NCBI GenBank assembly: GCA_011939005.1
Contig: GCA_011939005.1_4858.1
Source of the DNA: a phage
Length of the DNA stretch: 64,000 bases
Strand: one strand, 5' to 3'
The notes beneath the pieces are model-generated. The model was not told the origin of the DNA and ran no database searches. It saw nothing but the letters and a program-made list of their open reading frames with translations. The position numbers were made by a program, and so were the translations under genes. This document shows, in pieces, positions 1 to 10,513 of this stretch. The stretch's first letter is position 1. Every line of letters starts with the position of its first letter.

Positions 1-107
1 ATGTCTTTCTGCGTAACGTCCTTCGCAGTGACACGAGTAATAATGTAAGAAAGACGAACCAAAAACGCTTTCTTTGCCAACACAACGGTTTGATGTTTAA
101 AACGCAT
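1..107 (-). CDS. hypothetical protein, 5' end only (gene continues beyond window start)
   Basis: ATG at 107 preceded by the conserved leader AATCGACTATTAATCTAAAGGAGTATT; frame stays open to position 1 (MRFKHQTVVLAKKAFLV...); too short for the ORF track. Confidence 0.3.
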   Translation of the reverse strand, partial: MRFKHQTVVLAKKAFLVRLSYIITRVTAKDVTQKD

Positions 108-158
108 TAGAATACTCCTTTAGATTAATAGTCGATTAGAGAGTTTAGTAGTAACTCT

Positions 159-183
159 CACCTAAGTAATATATATCTGAAAT
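159..183 (-). promoter_or_regulatory. early-type promoter motif TTTCAGATATATATTACTTAGGTGA (copy 1)
   Basis: 25-nt motif shared with 29437-29461 and 37940-37964; contains TATATTAC; lies about 50 nt upstream of the start at 107 and just downstream of terminator 240-263. Confidence 0.5.
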
Positions 184-239
184 TTAGTGGACTGGAAGCA
201 AAAAGCATAAGACTGTTCCGATCTGTAAAAAAGACAATA

Positions 240-263
240 CCCTCTTACCCGAAGGTAAGAGGG
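240..263 (-). terminator. intrinsic terminator hairpin, UUCG loop in transcript
   Basis: perfect 10-bp stem CCTCTTACC/GGTAAGAGG with CGAA loop on + (UUCG on -); A-run on + at 226-231; follows stop of 270-893; sequence identical to hairpin at 27500-27523. Confidence 0.5.
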
Positions 264-269
264 GTACAA

Positions 270-893
270 CTAACCTGCCAGAATACGTTCAACGATACGC
301 GCGGCTTGTAACGCTATATCGTCGTCAGCCGTAACACGCATCAGCGGGAACTTATCGCCGCCATCTGTGGTGATGTGGAAAGCAAAACGGTAGTGGTCGC
401 GTAACGCGTCCCAATCAGTCTGTGAGCGCAGATACTTCGCTGTCAGTACCTCATCATCCCAGTTCTTGCCCTGGGCCTCTGCGCGCTTCTTAAAGCGTTC
501 TGTGGCGGTTTCGTAGGATACATCGGTTGCCACGTAAAGTTTCGGTGCGTTAATGTGGTCTAATACCCGTGAACGGAAAACTTCCCCTTTACCATCGACG
601 CCCTGGTAGACAATAGTCGATTGACAAAAACGGTCAAAAATAACGACATCGTGCTCTGGTACAACGAAATCCATCGTGTATTGGAAATCCAGACACATCG
701 CTTTAGCAATGCGTTCGTTAGAAGCGTGCTGGATAACCAGAGAACGTGCACTAATACCGGCTTCAGTGGTATTCGTCGGGTGATTGACGATGATGACATT
801 AACGCCAGCGGAGCGCAACATCGCTTGAATCATTTTCGCGAGTGTTGATTTGCCAGAAAAGTCCGGACCATCCAGCGCCACTGAGTTTAACAT
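270..893 (-). CDS. tmk: thymidylate kinase-like P-loop kinase
   Basis: P-loop LDGPDFSGKST, DRF and lid-like regions align by eye with bacterial Tmk; start moved to ATG 893 (GGGGAAGAA SD) because a terminator hairpin 971-990 lies inside the longer ORF-track extension. Confidence 0.6.
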   Translation of the reverse strand: MLNSVALDGPDFSGKSTLAKMIQAMLRSAGVNVIIVNHPTNTTEAGISARSLVIQHASNERIAKAMCLDFQYTMDFVVPEHDVVIFDRFCQSTIVYQGVDGKGEVFRSRVLDHINAPKLYVATDVSYETATERFKKRAEAQGKNWDDEVLTAKYLRSQTDWDALRDHYRFAFHITTDGGDKFPLMRVTADDDIALQAARIVERILAG

Positions 894-970
894 TTTATTC
901 TTCCCCAAAAGTTTAATTAATTGTAGTGGTGTCACAATATAGCGACCAAACGTAAAGAAAAAAATAAAAC

Positions 971-990
971 AGGCACCCCGAAGGATGCCT
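971..990 (-). terminator. intrinsic terminator hairpin, UUCG loop
   Basis: stem AGGCACCC/GGATGCCT (one mismatch), CGAA loop on +, preceded on + by A-run 948-968; downstream of stop of 1005-1763. Confidence 0.4.
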
Positions 991-1004
991 GACATTAGAT
1001 GTTA

Positions 1005-1763
1005 TTACTCGATAGCCTTGTGGTTCTTCATTTCTGGTGTCCAGGTGTGCTCAATCCATGCTTCGATGACCGGCTTGATGCCCGGACTTTTGAAGAATGC
1101 ATTTAATGACGGCCATTCCCCTAACGCGTACTTGTTAGTGAAATTGAGCGACATTACACTGAAGCCTTCGCGTTTGTTAAACAACGCAGAAGGGGCCAAG
1201 GAATAAGACAACATGGCCTGCGGCGTATCCGATTCGGGACGCAGCAGTGTCATGCGGCGGGTGACACGCAGTTCAATATCGTTGAAGTTAGCCCGGAGGT
1301 CTTCTTTAAATTTGACACTGCGGAAGAAACGATTTCCTGTTTCGGATGCTTTATTTACCAATCGCTCGGTTTGCATCACGTCTTTAAAATACGCATTGAT
1401 GCATTCTTCAATGAAGACATAGCGTGGTGCAGCTTCACGCAGTGCTTCTAAGTCGAACTCTTTCCATGCAGGGATGAGTTCAGGCTTACGGGCGATGTGT
1501 TTAAAGAACATCCTGGCTGAGACTTCACGCAGTGCTTTCAGCAGCCCGCGAATAACAGTTTCCCGCGTTGCGTTAGTTGCGAAGAACTCAGTCGTGCCAT
1601 GTACAACGGTACCGCCTGTTTTAGCGCTGATGAGCTTATGCTCTATCATAATCGGCATCCCGCCCTTGCCGATCATCTCTTCGTTATACAAAAACACATA
1701 ACGATATTCGCCACAGGCAGTGGGGACGGACAGGAACTTTTTCTTCGTAGTATTAACAGTCAT
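1005..1763 (-). CDS. hypothetical protein
   Basis: 252-aa ORF, SD-like AAGAGAGAAA upstream of ATG 1763. Confidence 0.5.
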   Translation of the reverse strand: MTVNTTKKKFLSVPTACGEYRYVFLYNEEMIGKGGMPIMIEHKLISAKTGGTVVHGTTEFFATNATRETVIRGLLKALREVSARMFFKHIARKPELIPAWKEFDLEALREAAPRYVFIEECINAYFKDVMQTERLVNKASETGNRFFRSVKFKEDLRANFNDIELRVTRRMTLLRPESDTPQAMLSYSLAPSALFNKREGFSVMSLNFTNKYALGEWPSLNAFFKSPGIKPVIEAWIEHTWTPEMKNHKAIE

Positions 1764-1855
1764 GGTATTTCTCTCTTAGTTTAAGTTGGTGAGTTTTAAC
1801 CGACTCACAACGGCTTCTAGCATATGCTAAGGATGAAACGTAAATTTTGTACGTC

Positions 1856-1876
1856 TCCCTAAAATAATATCTATCC
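1856..1876 (-). promoter_or_regulatory. promoter-like motif GGATAGATATTATTTTAGGGAG (class 2, copy a)
   Basis: shares GATAGATATTAT(C/T)TTAGGGAG with 22361-22384; sits between terminator 1894-1915 and the start at 1763. Confidence 0.35.
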
Positions 1877-1893
1877 GAAAAACAATAGAGTCG

Positions 1894-1915
1894 ACCCACT
1901 CCCGAAGGAGTGGGT
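1894..1915 (-). terminator. intrinsic terminator hairpin, UUCG loop
   Basis: stem ACCCACTCC/GGAGTGGGT, CGAA loop on +; minus-strand T-rich tract follows; downstream of stop of 1921-2517. Confidence 0.5.
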
Positions 1916-1920
1916 ATAAC

Positions 1921-2517
1921 TCACTGATGATCAACTTTCGGTTCAGACCACTCGGGGACTGGCGGAAGTTTAATATCAGTTGCGTATTCTGATGGCACCG
2001 CGAGTGTGGTAAAGCCACGACACGCCAAATAGTGCTGCATTCGTGCTGCCTGATTCGGTGTATCGGTGATCACCAAATGGGTCTTACGCATAAGTGCGAG
2101 TACCGCCTGTCCTTCTTGCGGCGTAGGTGTGCGTGGATGCTTACTGATAATGCTCATTAACCAGTCACGCGCAATACCACCTACATTACAACTGGCCTCA
2201 CGCAAATCAACCACGCCTTCACCTTCACCCACCACCTGTTTGGTGGAGTTAGGATAAAAGCGATACGGTGCACGACGACGCTTACGACGTACTTCCGAAA
2301 TAGCACGTCCGAGTATCATCTGTGCATGTTTAACGCTACAGCCTTCCACCGGTCTACGCATGTTCGTTACTAAACAGGCAATCTCTAGTACCTTACCGAT
2401 TTGATAACGACGCTTAAAGCCATGACGACTTATGTCTACGTATTCTGGAAGATTGCCGTTTTTATTGATGTTTGCAACCGTAATCAAAAACAGCGAATCG
2501 AGAATCATCTCAGACAT
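1921..2517 (-). CDS. hypothetical protein
   Basis: ORF with ATG at 2517 (GTG at 2520) preceded by AAGGGGAGA SD. Confidence 0.5.
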   Translation of the reverse strand: MSEMILDSLFLITVANINKNGNLPEYVDISRHGFKRRYQIGKVLEIACLVTNMRRPVEGCSVKHAQMILGRAISEVRRKRRRAPYRFYPNSTKQVVGEGEGVVDLREASCNVGGIARDWLMSIISKHPRTPTPQEGQAVLALMRKTHLVITDTPNQAARMQHYLACRGFTTLAVPSEYATDIKLPPVPEWSEPKVDHQ

Positions 2518-2529
2518 CACAGTCTCCCC

Positions 2530-2901
2530 TTAAAACCCCGCAACGACTGCAGCCATAAAGTCATGTACGACTTTACGTTGTTCTGCAAGCGGGTAGCCAA
2601 ATTTAGTAATGTCGTGCATCCACCGAACCCGGTGAGTCCGACCATCGTGACTGAATGTGGAGCGCAGTACCAGGAAATAATCCGCACTGACTCGAAAATG
2701 TAACGAGCAGCTGCCATGTTTGGCTCGCACGGTCAACTGAATACGCTTTACACCGCCGCCTAAATACTTAGCGTCGATGTCGACCTGGTCAACCTCCGAC
2801 ACAGCCCGTAAGGCTTGCGCGACGTCTTCCAGGTCCCCGTTCTTGCTCACATTAGCGCCATGGAGCGCTGCGGTACAGAGTTGAAGCTCTCGATAGAACA
2901 T
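2530..2901 (-). CDS. hypothetical protein
   Basis: 123-aa ORF; AGGAG SD 8 nt upstream of ATG 2901; start lies 55 nt inside the 3' end of the upstream ORF. Confidence 0.45.
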   Translation of the reverse strand: MFYRELQLCTAALHGANVSKNGDLEDVAQALRAVSEVDQVDIDAKYLGGGVKRIQLTVRAKHGSCSLHFRVSADYFLVLRSTFSHDGRTHRVRWMHDITKFGYPLAEQRKVVHDFMAAVVAGF

Positions 2902-3455
2902 CCTTCTAGTCTCCTGTCCCTCCCATAGTTCAAGGGATTTTTATAATACCAATCTTCATGCACAGGAGTCACGCGGATATACCGGCTGTAAAACAACAAG
3001 TATTTGTAGAAGGTATCAATACTGACGTCTTTGTCTACCGATAAAAAGTAGTTTAAAGACGGGTCGTCTGGGAACGACACAAAGATACCGGTGAAGTACG
3101 CATCGGCATAGGGGCCATTAAACGGCGTCACTTCACACTTCAGGCAAGGTAAGCCAACCTGAAACGCGTTCTGTCCTGTCCAGTAAATTCCACGTGTGGT
3201 TGCATCGCGTGTTTTCCCATCGGGACGACAAACAACCCCTGCCATAAAACTGGAGCGTTGACTTGGGTCAGCCGCGTTTAAGAACCGGGTTATTCTGTCT
3301 ACTGAAAAATATTTTAACGTGCCAGGCGGTAATTGCCAGAACTGTCCCATCGCACGTACCACCTTCCAACCAGGGCGATTTCTTGCCCCGAAACGCTTTA
3401 CACAAAAAGTATATCGCGAGCCAGTCTGATGTGGCACGCTGCGGACAGCCACCAT
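2847..3455 (-). CDS. hypothetical protein
   Basis: 202-aa ORF; ATG 3455 immediately follows stop of GNAT gene (TAAnATG). Confidence 0.45.
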   Translation of the reverse strand: MVAVRSVPHQTGSRYTFCVKRFGARNRPGWKVVRAMGQFWQLPPGTLKYFSVDRITRFLNAADPSQRSSFMAGVVCRPDGKTRDATTRGIYWTGQNAFQVGLPCLKCEVTPFNGPYADAYFTGIFVSFPDDPSLNYFLSVDKDVSIDTFYKYLLFYSRYIRVTPVHEDWYYKNPLNYGRDRRLEGCSIESFNSVPQRSMALM

Positions 3456-3456
3456 G

Positions 3457-3921
3457 TTAAAGCTCCTTTACCATATCCTGGTATTCAGTTCGGAATCCGA
3501 AACGTTCATAAAACGCAATAGCACGGTCGTTATTACCGAGCACGTTAAGCTGCATCCATGCGCAGCCTTTTGATTTGCCGTAGTTTTCTACGGCTTCGAT
3601 TAGTTCATGGCCAACGCCTTGCGAACGAACCGATTCATCTACAAAAAAGTTATATACCCAGAGGAAACGTTGTCCCTTTTTGGTGTAGCCGAAGGTGATG
3701 AAACCAACAGCCACACCACGGTCATCAACGGCGCAAGCGCATAGCGTACCTTCACCCCAAACCTCCTCCAGTTTTGAGATTTGATTAAAACCATCACGAC
3801 CGTTTAAGTCGGCGAGTTTTATTTTCTGATCGTCGTATAACTTGTTGTGTAGTCCTAACAAGTCGGCGTAGTATTTCTTTCCATACGGGGAGTTGGGCTT
3901 GGTGACAAAAACGATTTTCAT
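3457..3921 (-). CDS. GNAT family N-acetyltransferase
   Basis: acetyl-CoA binding motif RSQGVGHELIEAVENYGKSKGC and ...AIAFYERFGF; GGAGGG SD; start ATG overlaps upstream stop (ATGA). Confidence 0.6.
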   Translation of the reverse strand: MKIVFVTKPNSPYGKKYYADLLGLHNKLYDDQKIKLADLNGRDGFNQISKLEEVWGEGTLCACAVDDRGVAVGFITFGYTKKGQRFLWVYNFFVDESVRSQGVGHELIEAVENYGKSKGCAWMQLNVLGNNDRAIAFYERFGFRTEYQDMVKEL

Positions 3922-4382
3922 CACACCCTCCAATACATCTGGTAAGCACCTACCTTAAAGCCAGCTTTGTCGTAGAGCGACTTCGCGGCAGCGTTACCGG
4001 CGTTCACGGACAGGTGAACAACTGTACACCCTTTTTCCGTTGCGGATTTCTTTACCGCATCCATCAACGCGGCGCCGTAACCTTTACCACGTGCGCTGCT
4101 GCTAACGACCAGTGAGGATACCGACATCATCGTCACACCCTCTTCAGTCATCGTGCGGTATTGCGCAAAGCCATACAAGACACCGTCGTCCACGACCGCC
4201 AGTAAACGACCCCGGAAGCGCTCGGCTAACGATTTAGCCGGCGTAAAACGGACATTAATACCCGTCTCTTTTCGATAGCTTTCTATTTCGCTTTTGTCCA
4301 GCTCGTTATAAAGCGCGAGGATATCTGTGGAATATTTCCTGCCGTTAGCCGTGTCTGGCCCCACTATGGTAATAATCTTCAT
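3921..4382 (-). CDS. GNAT family N-acetyltransferase (second, tandem)
   Basis: motif ARGKGYGAALMDAVKKSATEKGC ... AAAKSLYDKAGF; GAGGTGA SD; ATGA overlap with upstream gene. Confidence 0.6.
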   Translation of the reverse strand: MKIITIVGPDTANGRKYSTDILALYNELDKSEIESYRKETGINVRFTPAKSLAERFRGRLLAVVDDGVLYGFAQYRTMTEEGVTMMSVSSLVVSSSARGKGYGAALMDAVKKSATEKGCTVVHLSVNAGNAAAKSLYDKAGFKVGAYQMYWRV

Positions 4383-5515
4383 CAGTTCACCTCGGCCAGC
4401 GATTGCTTCGTCCACTCCATTAGACCCTCCGCCACGCGTACCAGTGCCGTGGTGAAAGCGTCTTCCATCGCCATTGCATTACGGTAACGTAACGTGGCCT
4501 CCTTCAGCTCATCCCCTTCTAGGTTCTTAAGCTCGGACTTCATCGCTTCCACTTCTTCGTAAATGCCGGTGTAACCCACAACACGGTTCTTTGTTCCACG
4601 TGCAGCAATAGATTTGATAAGTGCTTCCACAGCCTCTATTGCTTTCCCACACTGATGCATATCCAGCGATTTAATGGTTTCACCATACTCACCGTCACGC
4701 GCAATTGCCCAACTGACCTTACCACTATGGTGCTCAACCACAACGATATTTCCAGGGACAGGAAAAGCTTCCACCTTTTTAAAGGGATCGATGATGCCAA
4801 GCAACCCAGCAGCACGCTTAACTGCCCAGTTCGTAGACTTGCTGATTTGTTTTAAACCTGGGCCTTCAAATGCTTTACTTTTCTTCAGGGCGGTACGTGT
4901 GTAAACTGTGTACTTTTGCACGACCCCTTCGTACGCGTTTGTCTGTTTAGAAAACTTAACACACGCTTCAAAATCTGGCCGATCTTCAAAACAAATTTTA
5001 GACGTCCAGCTACTCGTGTGAACGTCGACCGCAGCGAGTGTTTTGTGGTCATCCAATAACGACATTCGTGCTTTGAGCTTATTGAGCTTACGCTCCATGA
5101 ATGCGGCTTTCGAAGTTATTTCTTTCAAACGGTCGGCTTGTTCTTTCGCTAGCGCTTCCGCGAAATCGTAAAAGCGTAATGCGAGCTTTTTCGAAAGTTT
5201 ACCCGCGCCCTTTGCGGTTGCGCCTAGTCCAGCACCCACTAACTTTCCAGTACCTTTAACAGCTTTCGCAGTAATGCGCCCTGCTGCGCGATGGATGCCA
5301 GCCCGCGGGTCAGTATCAGTCATAAACTGAGCACGCTCCATCGCTTCGCGCGATTCACGAGCAACCAACATATCTTCACCGTCGTCGGTTAAGCACCAAC
5401 GCTGACGAATCGCGCAAACCGCAGGGAAGTCGGGCTTAACTCCCAGACCTTCGAGTGCGACCAGGCGATCGTAGTCGTCAGTCAGGACTTCTAAATCTAA
5501 ATCGAGCGTCGACAT
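4382..5515 (-). CDS. hypothetical protein, possible virion protein
   Basis: 377-aa ORF, AAGGAG SD; Ala/Gly/Lys-rich central region. Confidence 0.5.
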   Translation of the reverse strand: MSTLDLDLEVLTDDYDRLVALEGLGVKPDFPAVCAIRQRWCLTDDGEDMLVARESREAMERAQFMTDTDPRAGIHRAAGRITAKAVKGTGKLVGAGLGATAKGAGKLSKKLALRFYDFAEALAKEQADRLKEITSKAAFMERKLNKLKARMSLLDDHKTLAAVDVHTSSWTSKICFEDRPDFEACVKFSKQTNAYEGVVQKYTVYTRTALKKSKAFEGPGLKQISKSTNWAVKRAAGLLGIIDPFKKVEAFPVPGNIVVVEHHSGKVSWAIARDGEYGETIKSLDMHQCGKAIEAVEALIKSIAARGTKNRVVGYTGIYEEVEAMKSELKNLEGDELKEATLRYRNAMAMEDAFTTALVRVAEGLMEWTKQSLAEVN

Positions 5516-5525
5516 CCCCTGCTCC

Positions 5526-5798
5526 TTACATCTGCGTCAAAGTATAGTAGTAGTTGCGATGTGGCCATCGAACACACAAGGCAAATATCTCTCCCGTATC
5601 CGGCGTGGTGTAAACTGTCTGAATTGGGTCATTTTCTTGTGGTGCGACTTTCGAATCAAAACCGTGGCGTTCCAGGTAATCGAAGAACTCATCCTCGGAG
5701 CCTGGGAACAAGCGAAGGCTAGTCACCTTCTTAATCGGTTTTGACGGCGTAGGGAAGAATGCTTCCCACAAACGACGAGCTAAACTGGTAGTTTGCAT
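5526..5798 (-). CDS. hypothetical protein
   Basis: 90-aa ORF with AGAGGT SD. Confidence 0.45.
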   Translation of the reverse strand: MQTTSLARRLWEAFFPTPSKPIKKVTSLRLFPGSEDEFFDYLERHGFDSKVAPQENDPIQTVYTTPDTGEIFALCVRWPHRNYYYTLTQM

Positions 5799-5828
5799 AA
5801 TAGCGACCTCTGATTAAAGGCAACGTGG

Positions 5829-6428
5829 TCATAATAAGCACAAGCTCTCAAGCCACAGATGTCCTTCAAGCGCATGGTGGTAACAAGGAATACCACACTG
5901 CTTAGCGTATTTCACGCCCATGGCAGTACCGCCGGTCGGATTACCTTGTTTATCTAAAGGCGCAGAGTAATAAACTGCGTCTACAGGCGTTGCTAAATCA
6001 TCGCCCATAATTATATTCAGATTACGGCCATGAAGCGCCCAGGCGAACTCCTGGAGCTTTTCTGGCGCGGGATGAAGCTTACCTACTATCTCACGATAGC
6101 GGTCATCCTGAGGGATTACACGGAACTCTACGTTGGGATTCTGTTTCTTGAGCCAGAGCTTTTTCTCATCGGGTAGGTAACAAATGAACTCATCATCCCA
6201 CGCCATTTTCTTGCCGGTGTTCTGGTCTATTGTATTCGCCCACTGTCGGGCAAATCGGAATTGCAATTGGTCTGGACCACACCAGCAGCCGCCAGAAGAA
6301 AAACGAATCGTGTAATCTTTGGCGTGCAGCGCATTAAACCCACGTAACAATCGCATGTACATTTCAGACATGGTATCTTCATCAGTCTTCCGAGAACCGA
6401 TTACCGCAATTTTATAAATCTTTTTCAT
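5829..6428 (-). CDS. SLOG-superfamily Rossmann-fold protein (DprA/LOG-like), putative
   Basis: N-terminal KIAVIGSR and C-terminal PTGGTAMG resemble DprA/LOG family signatures; strong AGGAGGT SD. Confidence 0.35.
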   Translation of the reverse strand: MKKIYKIAVIGSRKTDEDTMSEMYMRLLRGFNALHAKDYTIRFSSGGCWCGPDQLQFRFARQWANTIDQNTGKKMAWDDEFICYLPDEKKLWLKKQNPNVEFRVIPQDDRYREIVGKLHPAPEKLQEFAWALHGRNLNIIMGDDLATPVDAVYYSAPLDKQGNPTGGTAMGVKYAKQCGIPCYHHALEGHLWLESLCLL

Positions 6429-6477
6429 GGACTTACCTCCTATACGGAGTGGACGATTCGTAAGAAAAAATAAATAC

Positions 6478-6504
6478 CTACCCTCGCTAAACGGGCGAGG
6501 GTAG
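6478..6504 (-). terminator. intrinsic terminator hairpin
   Basis: stem CTACCCTCGC/GCGAGGGTAG; A-run on + side 6463-6470; downstream of stop of 6509-7126. Confidence 0.45.
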
Positions 6505-6508
6505 TGTC

Positions 6509-7126
6509 TTAAACAAACTCACGATAACGAAAACCGTTAAGCTTCGTGATAGTCACTTCTTCTAACAGCTTACACCCCCAGAAACCAGCCAAGTCGTATT
6601 CCAGACCAGGCAACGTTGTCTTGGTTAAGTCTTGGCCGATATGGTACGGTAGCGTAATGCGTGTGCGCGATTCGTAAACAAATGATTCACATTCATAGAC
6701 GAGGACGTATCGATCAGTCGGGATGTCGTACTCTACGTGGCATTGCGCGGGGTTTTCCCACGCCTTACTTACAACGATGCCGCGTTCTGCACACGCCGAT
6801 TCAAAACTGACCATTGCAGGTTCAGACCATACGCGCAAATCGGCCGGTTTACCTTTCGACAAATCAAACCATGTGAGATGTTCAGGTTTCAACGTGATTA
6901 TATCATTTAGGCTCAATTTGCGGTAACGCACAACCACATAGTCATCTGGCTTACTCTTATTAGTCAGCAAAGCACTTACACGACCGTCCGGTTCCGGTGG
7001 ACCATAACTCTCCACTCGGATACGTTCTGTGGTCAGGGGCGTATAAACGGTTTCAGCATTAAAAGCATTGACTAAATCGAGCAAGGTTTGACTATGATGG
7101 TGGTTAAAGTCAATAACAAAAGACAT
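6509..7126 (-). CDS. hypothetical protein
   Basis: start placed at internal ATG 7126 with AGGAGCGAGG SD; ORF-track start at 7159 lacks an SD. Confidence 0.5.
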   Translation of the reverse strand: MSFVIDFNHHHSQTLLDLVNAFNAETVYTPLTTERIRVESYGPPEPDGRVSALLTNKSKPDDYVVVRYRKLSLNDIITLKPEHLTWFDLSKGKPADLRVWSEPAMVSFESACAERGIVVSKAWENPAQCHVEYDIPTDRYVLVYECESFVYESRTRITLPYHIGQDLTKTTLPGLEYDLAGFWGCKLLEEVTITKLNGFRYREFV

Positions 7127-7186
7127 GCCTCGCTCCTGGTATTTGATTAAGGGGGTCATAATACTTCACAGGAAAATAATAAACAG

Positions 7187-7208
7187 TATAGGGGCCGAAG
7201 CCCCTATA
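7187..7208 (-). terminator. intrinsic terminator hairpin, UUCG loop
   Basis: stem TATAGGGGC/GCCCCTATA with CGAA loop on +; A-rich on + side upstream; follows stop of 7217-7606. Confidence 0.45.
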
Positions 7209-7216
7209 CGCTGTGT

Positions 7217-7606
7217 TTAATAATCGTACAAAGGATACCGTGCGGAAATTTCTTTACCTACCCAAAAAGTTAACTGGTGGGTATTAACGCTGCGGTGTGT
7301 TCGTACTGACGGGACAATTGTCGCTTTAACTTTCGGCGAACATGTACCGGCATCTATTGGCTGGTACGTCTTGCGCTTTGTGTTAACGAGATAAAAGCCA
7401 CCGCCCGGACACAGTTCAGAACGCCCGTAGTTGACCACGGCAAACTCACCCTTCTCCACTGTCACGACTGGTTCATCTTTGTCGCTAAATTTTACAGGTG
7501 CGTCGGTTTCCCACATCGGTTTATACTGCGGGAAGTCCTGAATGGTAAAGGCGTTTACTGGCGCAGTAACGCAGAGTATAAACACAGCTAATACAGCACG
7601 CATCAT
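7217..7606 (-). CDS. secreted/periplasmic protein (signal peptide)
   Basis: N-terminus MMRAVLAVFILCVTAPVNA has n-h-c signal peptide features with AxA-like cleavage site. Confidence 0.5.
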   Translation of the reverse strand: MMRAVLAVFILCVTAPVNAFTIQDFPQYKPMWETDAPVKFSDKDEPVVTVEKGEFAVVNYGRSELCPGGGFYLVNTKRKTYQPIDAGTCSPKVKATIVPSVRTHRSVNTHQLTFWVGKEISARYPLYDY

Positions 7607-7608
7607 AT

Positions 7609-8085
7609 CTAGTCCTCTTCCAGATAGGGTAGAAGCCAGTCCATTTTCTCCAAACGGTGAATCATGTTGCGAGTGTTTGGCGATACCTGTAGGGCATCAT
7701 GGAACTGTTTTTTGAAGTGATGCCAGTGATAAGAGAAAGGTTTTGTTGGATAGCCCGCTTCCTTGAGAACTTCTTCCCACTCCAACCTCTGGATAAGGTG
7801 CTCGTCGACCAAAACCTCAACTAAAGCCTTCCAGGCACTCCGACGAAAATGCCGGGACAACCGACGTTTTAAATCGGCATAACTTTTTCTTTTACTGGAC
7901 CGTATTGCTGGTGAAGTCTTACTGTGATGAAAAGAACGTCTCGTAAGATTCAGAATCTTAACAGGAGTGCCCCTAAGCGAACTGTCTGCAATATTCAGTT
8001 CATGCTGAGGAACAAGCTCCACACGGCGGATGACGTTTATACGGGTTCCATCCGTATCTCGTGTTTCGTAAGCAACACGTATCAT
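7609..8085 (-). CDS. hypothetical basic protein
   Basis: 158-aa ORF, Arg/Lys-rich segment KRKSYADLKRRLSRHFRR. Confidence 0.45.
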   Translation of the reverse strand: MIRVAYETRDTDGTRINVIRRVELVPQHELNIADSSLRGTPVKILNLTRRSFHHSKTSPAIRSSKRKSYADLKRRLSRHFRRSAWKALVEVLVDEHLIQRLEWEEVLKEAGYPTKPFSYHWHHFKKQFHDALQVSPNTRNMIHRLEKMDWLLPYLEED

Positions 8086-8102
8086 TATACACTCTCGCTC
8101 GT

Positions 8103-8585
8103 TTAGACGAAATGACCTTCTGCCATCGAAAGAAAAATGGGAACGCTTTCGGCGTAATGTGTTAAAAGCTTTTCCTCCGGTGGCGTGTGTGACGAAATAA
8201 CATTGTAGTTCGTCATACGAAAATACCGTTGGCCGTCAGCAGCAATATACCATCGGTCAATCTGGAAGCCTTGTTGGTGAAAGAATCCTAGCGCGGGAAT
8301 GTTGGTCGGGTGAACACGACAGCTGACGTGTTTACGATCGGAGTTCTGCTGAAGATACTTAAGCATAAACCTGCCGACACCACCGCGGCGAGATTCTTCG
8401 GGTACAACCATATAGACCAAATGGCCAGGTTCCCATGCCATGATTCCCCGCACGATATCATCCTCAACAAACATCGTGAGTTTAATAGGCTCCTCGCGGA
8501 TACTGTTTAAGTCGCGCACCCATTCAACCAGTTCAGGATAAACATTCGCGGGAATCTTATCCTCGACCACATTAATAACAAGCAT
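8103..8585 (-). CDS. GNAT-like acetyltransferase (third)
   Basis: motif ESRRGGVGRFMLKYLQ ... PALGFFHQQGF; ATG at 8585 overlaps upstream stop (ATGA). Confidence 0.4.
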   Translation of the reverse strand: MLVINVVEDKIPANVYPELVEWVRDLNSIREEPIKLTMFVEDDIVRGIMAWEPGHLVYMVVPEESRRGGVGRFMLKYLQQNSDRKHVSCRVHPTNIPALGFFHQQGFQIDRWYIAADGQRYFRMTNYNVISSHTPPEEKLLTHYAESVPIFLSMAEGHFV

Positions 8586-9223
8586 CACTTCTCTCCACTA
8601 AGCAGGTATATGGCTTCTGCCAATGACAGGGACGGTTTTAACAGCATGTGTAGCGGCAGGATTGTTGAACGGTGAAACTGTGCCGGTGTTTTTGCCAGGT
8701 GTTCCAGATAGCGATTGACTGACATTTCTTGCCAATCGATAGTAGGTCGAACCCAGCTTATCTGTAACCATTTCCCCAATGAGACGTCACGCTTACCGCG
8801 TGGCATAATTATACTTAACTTGTACCCGTGGTCGAACTGACGCGGTGGATGACCTGGTTCCCAAGGAACTTCGGGACCTAACGCATCTGCAAGAAACCCT
8901 TCTTTAATTAACACATTTCTGACGGCAGCGAATATCCGTCCTCGTTGCGCGGTGATCTCTTTGACGTGTGCCATGGCATTTAGTTTACGTTTGGTAATTG
9001 CAGCGGAAAGCGCGCTGACAAACTGCCCTTCAACATACGGGGCGTTTAAGCAGCTACGAAACGGCACTACGTAAAACGCCTCCCACAATACTTCTTCGAC
9101 TGCCGCCAATAACAGCGCTTCTTTCTCAGCTGCAGTAAAATCCACAGACAGCATTTTGGTAAACGAACCTAATATAGCGCTAAACGGTAGTAGTACAGAC
9201 CGTTGACGAAATTGTAATTGCAT
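8585..9223 (-). CDS. hypothetical protein
   Basis: 212-aa ORF, AAGGAA SD upstream of ATG 9223. Confidence 0.5.
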   Translation of the reverse strand: MQLQFRQRSVLLPFSAILGSFTKMLSVDFTAAEKEALLLAAVEEVLWEAFYVVPFRSCLNAPYVEGQFVSALSAAITKRKLNAMAHVKEITAQRGRIFAAVRNVLIKEGFLADALGPEVPWEPGHPPRQFDHGYKLSIIMPRGKRDVSLGKWLQISWVRPTIDWQEMSVNRYLEHLAKTPAQFHRSTILPLHMLLKPSLSLAEAIYLLSGEK

Positions 9224-9280
9224 TTTTTATATTCCTTTTGGGTCGTGCTTACACAGTAATTTACGTAGACGTAATAAAAA

Positions 9281-9304
9281 AAATAAGAAGCCTCTTCCCC
9301 CGGA
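9281..9304 (-). terminator. intrinsic terminator hairpin
   Basis: stem CCTCTTC/GAAGAGG around a CCCCCGGAGGA loop; A-run 9266-9275 on +; follows stop of 9321-9893. Confidence 0.4.
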
Positions 9305-9320
9305 GGAGAAGAGGGCTTAA

Positions 9321-9893
9321 TTACACTTTAGGTGCGGTAGTCTGTTGCTTCGCGTTGCTCTTATTCAGCTTGTATTCAACAACTTTGGCACCAATGGCCA
9401 TCGAATTGTAAGCAAGCGTCTTAATCGGCCATGTAAAGAACACGGCCTGAGCAAACAAAGGTAAGAGCGCCACAATCAGCACATCCGTTAACTCTTCTGG
9501 ATAATGCAGGTGTGTGTCCCAGGCCATCGCGCCAGTAATCACCACAGTGGTCAGCACCAACAAAACGATAAGGACTTTCTGAGGACCTTTTAAATTCGGC
9601 CACAGGGTCAATAACGTTTCTTTGGCAAGCTTTTCATCCATACTCTCCACAGCTGCTTTCGCCTGTGATTCAAACGTCTTCGCCATATTCCCAACCTGTT
9701 CAAGAATCAGGGGGCGTAGTGACGTAAGAATCACGTTAGCAGGCTTAGTGACATCAATTACAACATCACTTCCCAAAGCGGTCTGAGCGGCTTTTTTTAG
9801 TCGGGCGCTCTCTTCCAGGCTTAATTTGTTGGTGCCCGCCTGGATAAGAACATCCAACACATCCGTCGAAGCTTCTTGCAAAGACTGCGACAT
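9321..9893 (-). CDS. integral membrane protein
   Basis: two to three hydrophobic helices (VLIVLLVLTTVVITGAMAW, VLIVALLPLFAQAVFF); GGAGGAAAT SD. Confidence 0.5.
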   Translation of the reverse strand: MSQSLQEASTDVLDVLIQAGTNKLSLEESARLKKAAQTALGSDVVIDVTKPANVILTSLRPLILEQVGNMAKTFESQAKAAVESMDEKLAKETLLTLWPNLKGPQKVLIVLLVLTTVVITGAMAWDTHLHYPEELTDVLIVALLPLFAQAVFFTWPIKTLAYNSMAIGAKVVEYKLNKSNAKQQTTAPKV

Positions 9894-9895
9894 CG

Positions 9896-10513
9896 CTATT
9901 TCCTCCGGCGTCTTCCTTTCCGCTTACCGGCCTTAGCTTTAGGAACCTTAACCTTGGGCGGAAGGAGACTATTTAGGTTTAATAAGTTGACCCTGACGAA
10001 GATATTACCCACCGCCACGGCATCGATACTGTGTTCATCCAATACCGATAAGTCGCACCGGGTATGGTTTGCGTAGAGTTTGGTCACCGCTTGCTGCATA
10101 TGCGATTTATCTGTACCCTTTGCTTCCACACCAACGTACGACTTCACAATAATAGGATTAAACCCATGGAGATATTTTTCGGGAAACACGTCCCAAAGCG
10201 TTCGCCGCAACATCAGTTGCAATTCCACCCCAGATTCGTACGCTGAGAGCTTAGCTCTTCGCATGAACGGAGTTTCGGTAGCGACAAAAGTCGGCCTTGC
10301 CAGTTTTAAAAACTCACGAAAGCGTTCTTCTAATTCTACCAAACGCGCATCGCGTTTCCCTACGCACTCACCAAAAGAGCCATTGTGCGTAGGGTCCGCA
10401 ACATGAGCCGTGCCCGCCCAGACAACTTCACCTTGAGGTTGGCCAAATTCCCAGTCGATAACCGCCATCCCAAGATGGGCAGTACCGGGGTCAACAGCCG
10501 CAATCCTCACCAT
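9896..10513 (-). CDS. RuvC-like Holliday junction resolvase
   Basis: IAAVDPGTAHLGMAVI, VATETPF, KSHMQQAV and DAVAVGN align by eye with RuvC catalytic regions; start set at MVRIAAV (ATG 10513), alternative ATG at 10546. Confidence 0.6.
   Translation of the reverse strand: MVRIAAVDPGTAHLGMAVIDWEFGQPQGEVVWAGTAHVADPTHNGSFGECVGKRDARLVELEERFREFLKLARPTFVATETPFMRRAKLSAYESGVELQLMLRRTLWDVFPEKYLHGFNPIIVKSYVGVEAKGTDKSHMQQAVTKLYANHTRCDLSVLDEHSIDAVAVGNIFVRVNLLNLNSLLPPKVKVPKAKAGKRKGRRRRK

Follow-up and report, generated by a model that had tools for sequence, protein, structure and literature searches.

GNAT enzymes in the head-gene block of an SPN3US-like jumbo phage: an orthologue of capsid protein gp95 and an accessory paralogue

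Low-copy enzymes that are packaged in the capsid and ejected, such as T4 Alt, are found in large myoviruses, where they are encoded among the head genes. We analysed a 64,000-nucleotide (nt) stretch of phage DNA (NCBI GenBank assembly GCA_011939005.1, contig GCA_011939005.1_4858.1; 'the window', to whose positions coordinates refer unless another record is named) for a run of four genes that includes a possible addition to this group. All four open reading frames (ORFs) are on the minus strand and encode a homologue of the low-copy SPN3US head protein gp94 (5515..4382, 377 amino acids (aa)), two acetyltransferases of the GNAT superfamily, here called GNAT1 (4382..3921, 153 aa) and GNAT2 (3921..3457, 154 aa), and a basic protein (3455..2847, 202 aa). 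The initial annotation had placed four co-directional, tightly abutted genes at these positions, as we also found. The region is 98.1% identical in nucleotide sequence to Escherichia phage vB_EcoM_Lh1B and 95.6% to the Seoulvirus Salmonella phage SPN3US, and by its sequence the window phage is itself a Seoulvirus, that is, an SPN3US-like, nucleus-forming jumbo phage.

The closest described counterpart of the locus is the gp94-gp95-gp96-gp97 run of SPN3US (YP_009153388-391), which has the same order, orientation and TGATG junction style, with protein identities of 98.4%, 99.4%, 98.0% and 100%, respectively. It differs in having no GNAT1 gene (461 bp) where gp94 meets gp95; the window carries a minority form with GNAT1, as do Lh1B, EC001, JN03 and phage 1252. 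Mass spectrometry identified SPN3US gp94 as a head protein that may be cleaved at ALE-22, ARE-51 or AME-60 (PMC5694885 Table S1; PMC10052503 supplement), and detected gp95 (17.6 kDa) in virions through 8 unique peptides that cover 56% of the protein (PMC5694885 Table S1). In a triplicate comparison of virions with tailless heads, gp94, gp95 and gp97 were all classed as head proteins; for gp95, 123 spectra were counted in virions against 97 in heads (normalised ratio 1.1), and its N-terminus was intact and uncleaved (PMC10052503 supplement). Per unit mass, the 2017 spectral counts were 0.85 (gp95), 0.84 (gp94) and 0.93 (the portal, present in 12 copies) (PMC5694885 Table S1).

The window homologue of gp94 matched the 'internal head protein' family phrog_2497 (E=2.1e-88) and, weakly, PF12699 (phiKZ_IP; 17.5 bits, under the cut-off of 27), and its N-terminal region has three sites that fit the prohead-protease motif, ALE-22, ARE-54 and AME-60. 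Because the SPN3US orthologues of this protein and of GNAT2 are both capsid proteins, the locus is better described as a head-gene module than as an early host-takeover operon.

On balance, we favour a reading in which this module provides a packaged, probably ejected amine acetyltransferase together with an accessory paralogue, GNAT1. The co-directional gp92-gp98 block would mainly supply capsid contents, and GNAT2/gp95, small and catalytically intact, would be built uncleaved into the capsid at a normalised spectral count near that of gp94 and ejected with the DNA. At the onset of infection it would then carry out acetyl-CoA-dependent N-acetylation of a polyamine-like amine, the presumed substrate in Seoulviruses, which would locally lower the free polyamine pool; GNAT1 would acetylate a different acceptor. 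Since gp95 lies in the capsid and has kept its catalytic motifs, ejection with the DNA followed by amine acetylation appears to be the most likely mechanism. T4 Alt offers a parallel with differences: it is an ADP-ribosyltransferase with a cleaved targeting propeptide, whereas gp95 is an uncleaved GNAT whose ejection we infer.

GNAT2 and its spermidine-acetylating relatives

The two middle genes had been described as distinct GNATs rather than recent duplicates, and the sequence comparisons bear this out. PF00583 matched GNAT1 at E=8.7e-17 (61.9 bits) and GNAT2 at E=1e-17 (64.9 bits), well above its cut-off of 20.7, and the two proteins are 34% identical over their full length, which argues against a recent duplication. 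On alignment, the acetyl-CoA motif (motif A, Q/R-x-x-G-x-G/A) is intact in both, as R98-G-K-G-Y-G103 in GNAT1 and R99-S-Q-G-V-G104 in GNAT2; its Arg and both Gly residues, together with the motif-B Tyr (the general acid), are invariant in both clades in 12-sequence alignments. Both proteins belong to phrog_3810, matched by GNAT2 at E=2.6e-59 over positions 1-154 of 155 and by GNAT1 at E=3.8e-24 over positions 1-149 of 155.

GNAT2 is identical to SPN3US gp95 (YP_009153389) at 153 of 154 residues, the lone difference being D43E. The family has members of known activity: a survey of viral polyamine enzymes reports that candidate spermidine N-acetyltransferases were expressed in Escherichia coli lacking speG, and that those of Erwinia phages phiEaH2 (YP_007237670) and Caitlin (YP_009292176) made N-acetylspermidine (PMC9992855). 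Both are positional orthologues of GNAT2, their genes lying directly 3' of the head-protein gene. GNAT2 is 72% identical to the phiEaH2 enzyme and 54% to the Caitlin enzyme, and has motif A, the conserved Tyr and a C-terminal MVKEL in common with them, whereas GNAT1 is only about 30% identical to these enzymes and is basic. In a neighbour-joining tree, the GNAT2 clade including both verified Erwinia enzymes has 100% bootstrap support, and GNAT1 falls outside it in a four-member clade of its own (also 100%).

AF2 models of GNAT1 and GNAT2 (mean pLDDT 88 and 93, respectively) have the GNAT alpha/beta fold, and SSAT and a 1,3-diaminopropane acetyltransferase are among the folds closest to them. 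NatD, Ard1 and RimI also rank high, and the ranking of folds does not discriminate between GNAT families. The eukaryotic spermidine/spermine N1-acetyltransferases SSAT1/SSAT2 and, among bacterial polyamine GNATs, the 1,3-diaminopropane acetyltransferase Dpa (PDB 8a9n) are among the top structural and sequence neighbours with a shared fold (19-25% identity to SSAT), but their similarity is no better than that to many other GNAT families and is not accompanied by a family-level match to a hidden Markov model (HMM).

The capsid location of gp95 and its membership of a spermidine-acetylating family appear never to have been linked in the literature searched. The word 'acetyltransferase' was not found in the main texts of PMC5694885 and PMC10052503 or in the 2023 supplement, and the passages of PMC9992855 consulted do not mention that gp95 is in the capsid.

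GNAT1, a diverged paralogue of patchy distribution

GNAT1 was present at at least 99% identity in 4 of 38 matching phage records (Lh1B, EC001, JN03 and phage 1252), and the other non-fragmentary matching records, SPN3US among them, lack exactly 461 bp. The difference is clean, and because TGATGAA is common to both gene starts its end-points cannot be placed. For homologues, 5.8 billion proteins were screened by a word-indexed search, and HMMER was run in full against 1.84 billion representatives. The GNAT1 clade proved narrow, with members 99%, 85%, 76% and 50% identical, followed by full-length phage-type GNATs at E of about 1e-12. Recent horizontal acquisition from bacteria was considered and rejected, as the HMMER scan returned GNAT1's own narrow clade (3 matches at E<=1e-30) and then phage-type GNATs.

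Every member of the clade, in four diverged lineages (47-85% identical to GNAT1 of the window), lies between a head-protein gene and a GNAT2-type gene (loci L005-L009 and L013). This includes a contig in which GNAT2 shares 85% identity with the Caitlin enzyme, and the GNAT1 and GNAT2 gene trees are broadly congruent. The shared position in diverged lineages and the congruent trees indicate a duplication that appears older than the split of these genera, followed by repeated loss of GNAT1. We accordingly regard GNAT1, from its phylogeny and position, as an ancient tandem paralogue of the gp95 family.

The start of the gene differs between annotations. GenBank gives GNAT1 in Lh1B (L002 4422-4916) and EC001 a GTG start 33 nt upstream, which makes a 164-aa protein overlapping gp94. 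At locus L008, a TAG stop directly precedes the GNAT1 ATG, and the N-terminus from this ATG aligns with the MKI start of GNAT2, so that the 153-aa ATG start is likely the true one.

Two further alleles bear on whether GNAT1 is maintained. The L005 copy (4001-4462 of that locus) is a mosaic: codons 1-63 have 99.5% nucleotide identity to the window, and codons 64-153 have 64.8%, with a saturated synonymous rate (dS) and a non-synonymous rate (dN) of 0.21. Its first 188 nt match the window exactly, and the 270 nt after them are about 65% identical. The genes flanking it are 97-100% identical to the window in protein and 96-100% in nucleotide sequence, a pattern that suggests an exchange by recombination with a GNAT1 allele that had diverged, with a breakpoint near 4194 and with frame and motifs preserved. 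The L009 copy (4001-4276 of that locus) is a remnant of 91 aa, shortened by a 186-bp in-frame deletion between CGTG microhomologies that takes out beta-strands 3-5 and motif A, and is likely to be inactivated, judging by what it has lost. A candidate hairpin within GNAT1 (4210-4185) coincides with both the L005 breakpoint and the left boundary of the L009 deletion, but in RNA folding against shuffled sequences it is not significant (z=-0.47).

The L009 deletion, the presence of the gene in just 4 of 38 records and the clean 461-bp difference between repeated TGATGAA junctions are what one would expect of a redundant tandem duplicate that has no distinct function and is being lost. Set against this, four lineages, the most distant at 47% identity, have kept GNAT1 intact; motif A and the catalytic Tyr are conserved in it, and the recombinant L005 allele has retained its frame and motifs. 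Between the window and L005, dN is 0.116 and dS 0.97 (dN/dS of about 0.12), a sign of purifying selection, and dS is saturated in the diverged part; the clade is also consistently basic, unlike GNAT2. Redundancy therefore strikes us as a rather improbable account of the gene.

Isoelectric points in the GNAT1 clade are 9.2-9.6 (net charge +5 to +8; 9.4 for the window protein), and those of most of the GNAT2 clade are 5.6-6.7, with two members at 7.8 and 8.7; the clades also differ in the alpha1-alpha2 region, the beta4 strand and the C-terminus. The basic charge and diverged segments of the GNAT1 clade suggest an acceptor substrate different from that of GNAT2.

A basic character is also a property of tRNA-binding GNAT toxins, and the initial annotation had raised the idea of a toxin and a structural comparison with TacT and AtaT. 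Like these toxins, both enzymes are small single-domain GNATs, and AtaT does appear among the Foldseek matches of GNAT1, at rank 46 (TM 0.53, 14% identity). The resemblance is not specific. Neither TacT nor AtaT occurs among the PDB sequence matches at E<=0.01; the homologues of gp93, gp96 and gp97 have no Pfam match (E<=0.1), and hence there is no DUF1778/RHH antitoxin partner among them; PADLOC reported nothing significant; and the genes sit in the head block of a strictly lytic phage that packages one of the products in its capsid. We rejected a toxin-antitoxin or defence reading on these grounds, and TacT/AtaT-type toxins, alone or as part of a toxin-antitoxin or abortive-infection system, are the least supported of the explanations considered and highly improbable.

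Substrate, ejection and alternative roles

Several observations weigh against a packaged amine acetyltransferase with an accessory paralogue. The reading depends on an ejection step for gp95 that we infer, and the capsid mass spectrometry comes from SPN3US, a phage without GNAT1. GNAT1 is dispensable in most relatives, and the L009 remnant described above has lost motif A. In the assay that was positive for the two Erwinia enzymes, SPN3US gp95 (YP_009153389) gave no N-acetylspermidine above background (PMC9992855). In the VL[D/G]NN segment (3533-3547; GNAT2 residues about 126-130), Gly is present in Seoulvirus GNAT2 and the proteins nearest to it, Asp in the active Erwinia enzymes and in the majority of the clade, and Ala in GNAT1. 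Finally, none of the weak NCBIfam matches of the two proteins (0 of 33 and 0 of 27) reached an equivalog cut-off, so that no substrate could be assigned in this way.

The Gly residue is a candidate cause of the negative assay and may reflect a change of substrate. The earlier description of the substrates as unknown is right only in part: the positional orthologues of GNAT2 in phiEaH2 and Caitlin use spermidine, and SPN3US gp95 was negative for it.

The NCBIfam comparison also bears on the aminoglycoside and protein acetyltransferases named for comparison in the initial annotation. Among SpeG, PaiA and BltD, the sole match was PaiA (NF053587) for GNAT2, at 23.6 bits against a cut-off of 250, with no match to SpeG. 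Aminoglycoside, streptothricin and phosphinothricin resistance GNATs scored 18-36 bits at best, against cut-offs of 140-420. RimI (TIGR01575) was the best or second-best match of both GNATs, at 46.9 and 43.1 bits, and this too is far under its cut-off of 86.4.

The RimI matches, together with the NatD, Ard1 and RimI structures among the top folds, raise the possibility that one or both enzymes are protein N-acetyltransferases, Rac-like or RimI/Nat-like, that would modify a host protein (RNA polymerase or a protein of the ribosome, for example) or a head protein of the phage in place of a polyamine. In a comparative review, GNATs of jumbo phages are predicted to work in the manner of phiKMV Rac (PMC7824862), the negative spermidine assay of SPN3US gp95 would fit such a role, and the basic character of GNAT1 disfavours binding of a polycation. 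The scores are nevertheless sub-threshold, the structural ranking does not separate families and two GNAT2 orthologues acetylate spermidine; we consider acetylation of a putative protein target unlikely, though worth keeping in mind.

A second alternative starts from the abundance of gp95 in the head, which is nearly that of gp94 after normalisation. The GNATs could have a non-catalytic part in the capsid, as structural proteins or chaperones, gp94 being one conceivable partner, in parallel with the structural reuse of a GNAT-like fold by chimallin, which contains an inactive GNAT-like domain (PMC9365700). The overlap of the gp94 stop codon with the gp95 start codon in SPN3US and the failure of gp95 to acetylate spermidine are consistent with this. 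Invariance of the acetyl-CoA motif and the catalytic Tyr in both clades argues for catalysis, however, as do the active orthologues, and in more distant jumbo phages a homologous GNAT is encoded away from the head-protein gene. A purely structural role is thus very unlikely.

A third possibility extends the favoured reading to GNAT1. Both GNATs would be capsid-delivered effectors, comparable as acetyltransferases to T4 Alt, with GNAT1 packaged and ejected onto another host target at DNA entry, perhaps a defence factor or a polyamine pool needed by restriction or CRISPR enzymes. We hold this version to be doubtful; if it were true, the patchy presence of GNAT1 and the recombinant L005 allele would reflect host-specific selection. 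The anti-defence and host-takeover roles raised in the initial annotation are possible.

The gp92-gp98 block in Seoulviruses and the meaning of the locus

The four genes had been described as a tightly coupled operon joined by ATGA or TAAnATG junctions. The third junction is indeed TAAcATG; the first two are TGATG, with a 1-nt overlap of stop and start, rather than ATGA. Stop/start overlap or abutment with no terminator between genes, our criterion for an operon, extends across the four ORFs, with coupling and transcript ends being predictions from sequence. Every one of the four starts is preceded, 5-7 nt upstream, by a GAGG or AAGGAG Shine-Dalgarno box, so that translational coupling or reinitiation is possible without being necessary. 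Junctions as tight as these are usual in this genome, with 19 of 52 same-strand junctions in the window overlapping or at most 2 nt apart (by a rough ORF proxy), and the SPN3US annotation shows the same habit.

As a unit of four, the operon did not hold up. A 90-aa gene, the gp93 homologue, stops 10 nt ahead of the gp94 homologue; a 123-aa gene, the gp97 homologue, overlaps the gp96 homologue by 55 nt; and the 198-aa gp98 homologue follows 12 nt further on. The four-gene boundary is therefore arbitrary, and the real array is the gp92-gp98 block, whose eight genes (6428 to 1921) lie between the only two strong minus-strand hairpins, at 6504..6478 and 1912..1893 (each with z of about -5). The upstream hairpin is terminator-like, with a ten-pair stem followed by a T-run (-19.8 kcal/mol, z=-5.0, 0 of 200 shuffles as stable), and is likely the end of the preceding transcript. 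The downstream one, a terminator-like hairpin with a UUCG loop (-22.7 kcal/mol, z=-4.9, 0 of 200 shuffles as stable), comes directly after the gp98 stop. No significant hairpin was found inside the block, and no structured RNA of Rfam matched positions 1-10000. A scan for sigma-70 promoters gave fewer matches than in shuffled sequence, the model being unsuited to a phage that uses its own RNA polymerases. All genes of the block are under purifying selection (dN/dS 0.01-0.16).

The block opens with a DprA-like gp92 homologue (5829..6428; phrog_768, E=2.8e-47; RefSeq SPN3US annotation), followed by the gp93 homologue (5526..5798; phrog_8146, E=3.8e-37), which is 96.7% identical to SPN3US gp93. 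Downstream of GNAT2, the gp96 homologue (phrog_9255, E=4.8e-96) has no Pfam, NCBIfam or PDB match and a dN/dS of 0.09-0.16, and SPN3US gp96 is not among the virion proteins in the 2017 and 2023 tables (PMC5694885, PMC10052503). The gp97 homologue (2530..2901; phrog_8535, E=9.6e-55) corresponds to a small capsid protein. Its mass is 11.9 kDa in the 2017 table and 13.8 kDa in the 2023 table, so that the start codon of gp97 may deserve checking. The gp98 homologue (1921..2517; phrog_8075, E=3.8e-95) closes the block; SPN3US gp98 was listed in virions in 2017 (PMC5694885) and moved to the non-virion proteins in 2023 (PMC10052503).

Gene order is conserved beyond the Seoulviruses. In phiEaH2, a 202-aa gp96 homologue that is unannotated in RefSeq (NC_019929 18083-18691; L003 3966-4574) starts 1 nt after the acetyltransferase stop, and the order gp94-GNAT-gp96-gp97-gp98 is thereby kept across genera. 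The 55-nt frame overlap of gp96 and gp97 (2847-2901) is likewise kept in SPN3US, Lh1B, Caitlin, phiEaH2 and loci L005, L008 and L009. In two diverged relatives, a small gene with a BubE domain (PF20137) lies directly 5' of the gp94-type head gene (L008 2535-2858; L013 1279-1632), for which the window has no counterpart, and L008 has a second gene of head-protein size (328 aa) upstream of it. A deep functional tie between the head-protein gene and the GNAT is not supported, since homologous GNATs in Maaswegvirus and Moabitevirus are located elsewhere; the adjacency is lineage-specific.

Further GNAT genes occur nearby. The gp88 homologue, 4 kb upstream (8103-8588, minus strand), is a third, unrelated GNAT (PF00583, 25.9 bits) with no BLASTP alignment to GNAT2, and SPN3US encodes a 333-aa GNAT (record 95846-96844; L001 1073-2071) at a position just past the left end of the window. 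A stretch of about 15 kb in Seoulviruses thus contains three or four GNAT genes. Records of SPFM Salmonella phages, including LR535903 and LR535913, gave about 40 short matching pieces with truncated or frameshifted GNAT fragments (P0014-P0018), which looks like a problem of sequence quality in those records and not like biology.

What is new here is modest. It consists of a definition of the GNAT1 clade with an account of its history, and of a connection drawn between packaging in the capsid and a family of spermidine acetyltransferases. Otherwise the locus is an ordinary, previously annotated part of a well-studied phage genus. GNAT1 offers a natural presence/absence series in near-identical phages, with Lh1B, EC001, JN03 and 1252 on one side and SPN3US on the other. 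Injection of an acetyltransferase for polyamines or other amines together with the DNA of a jumbo phage would, if it occurs, be a new kind of host manipulation at time zero. It would also offer a concrete way to test whether, as has been suggested, a transient fall in polyamines weakens restriction and CRISPR.

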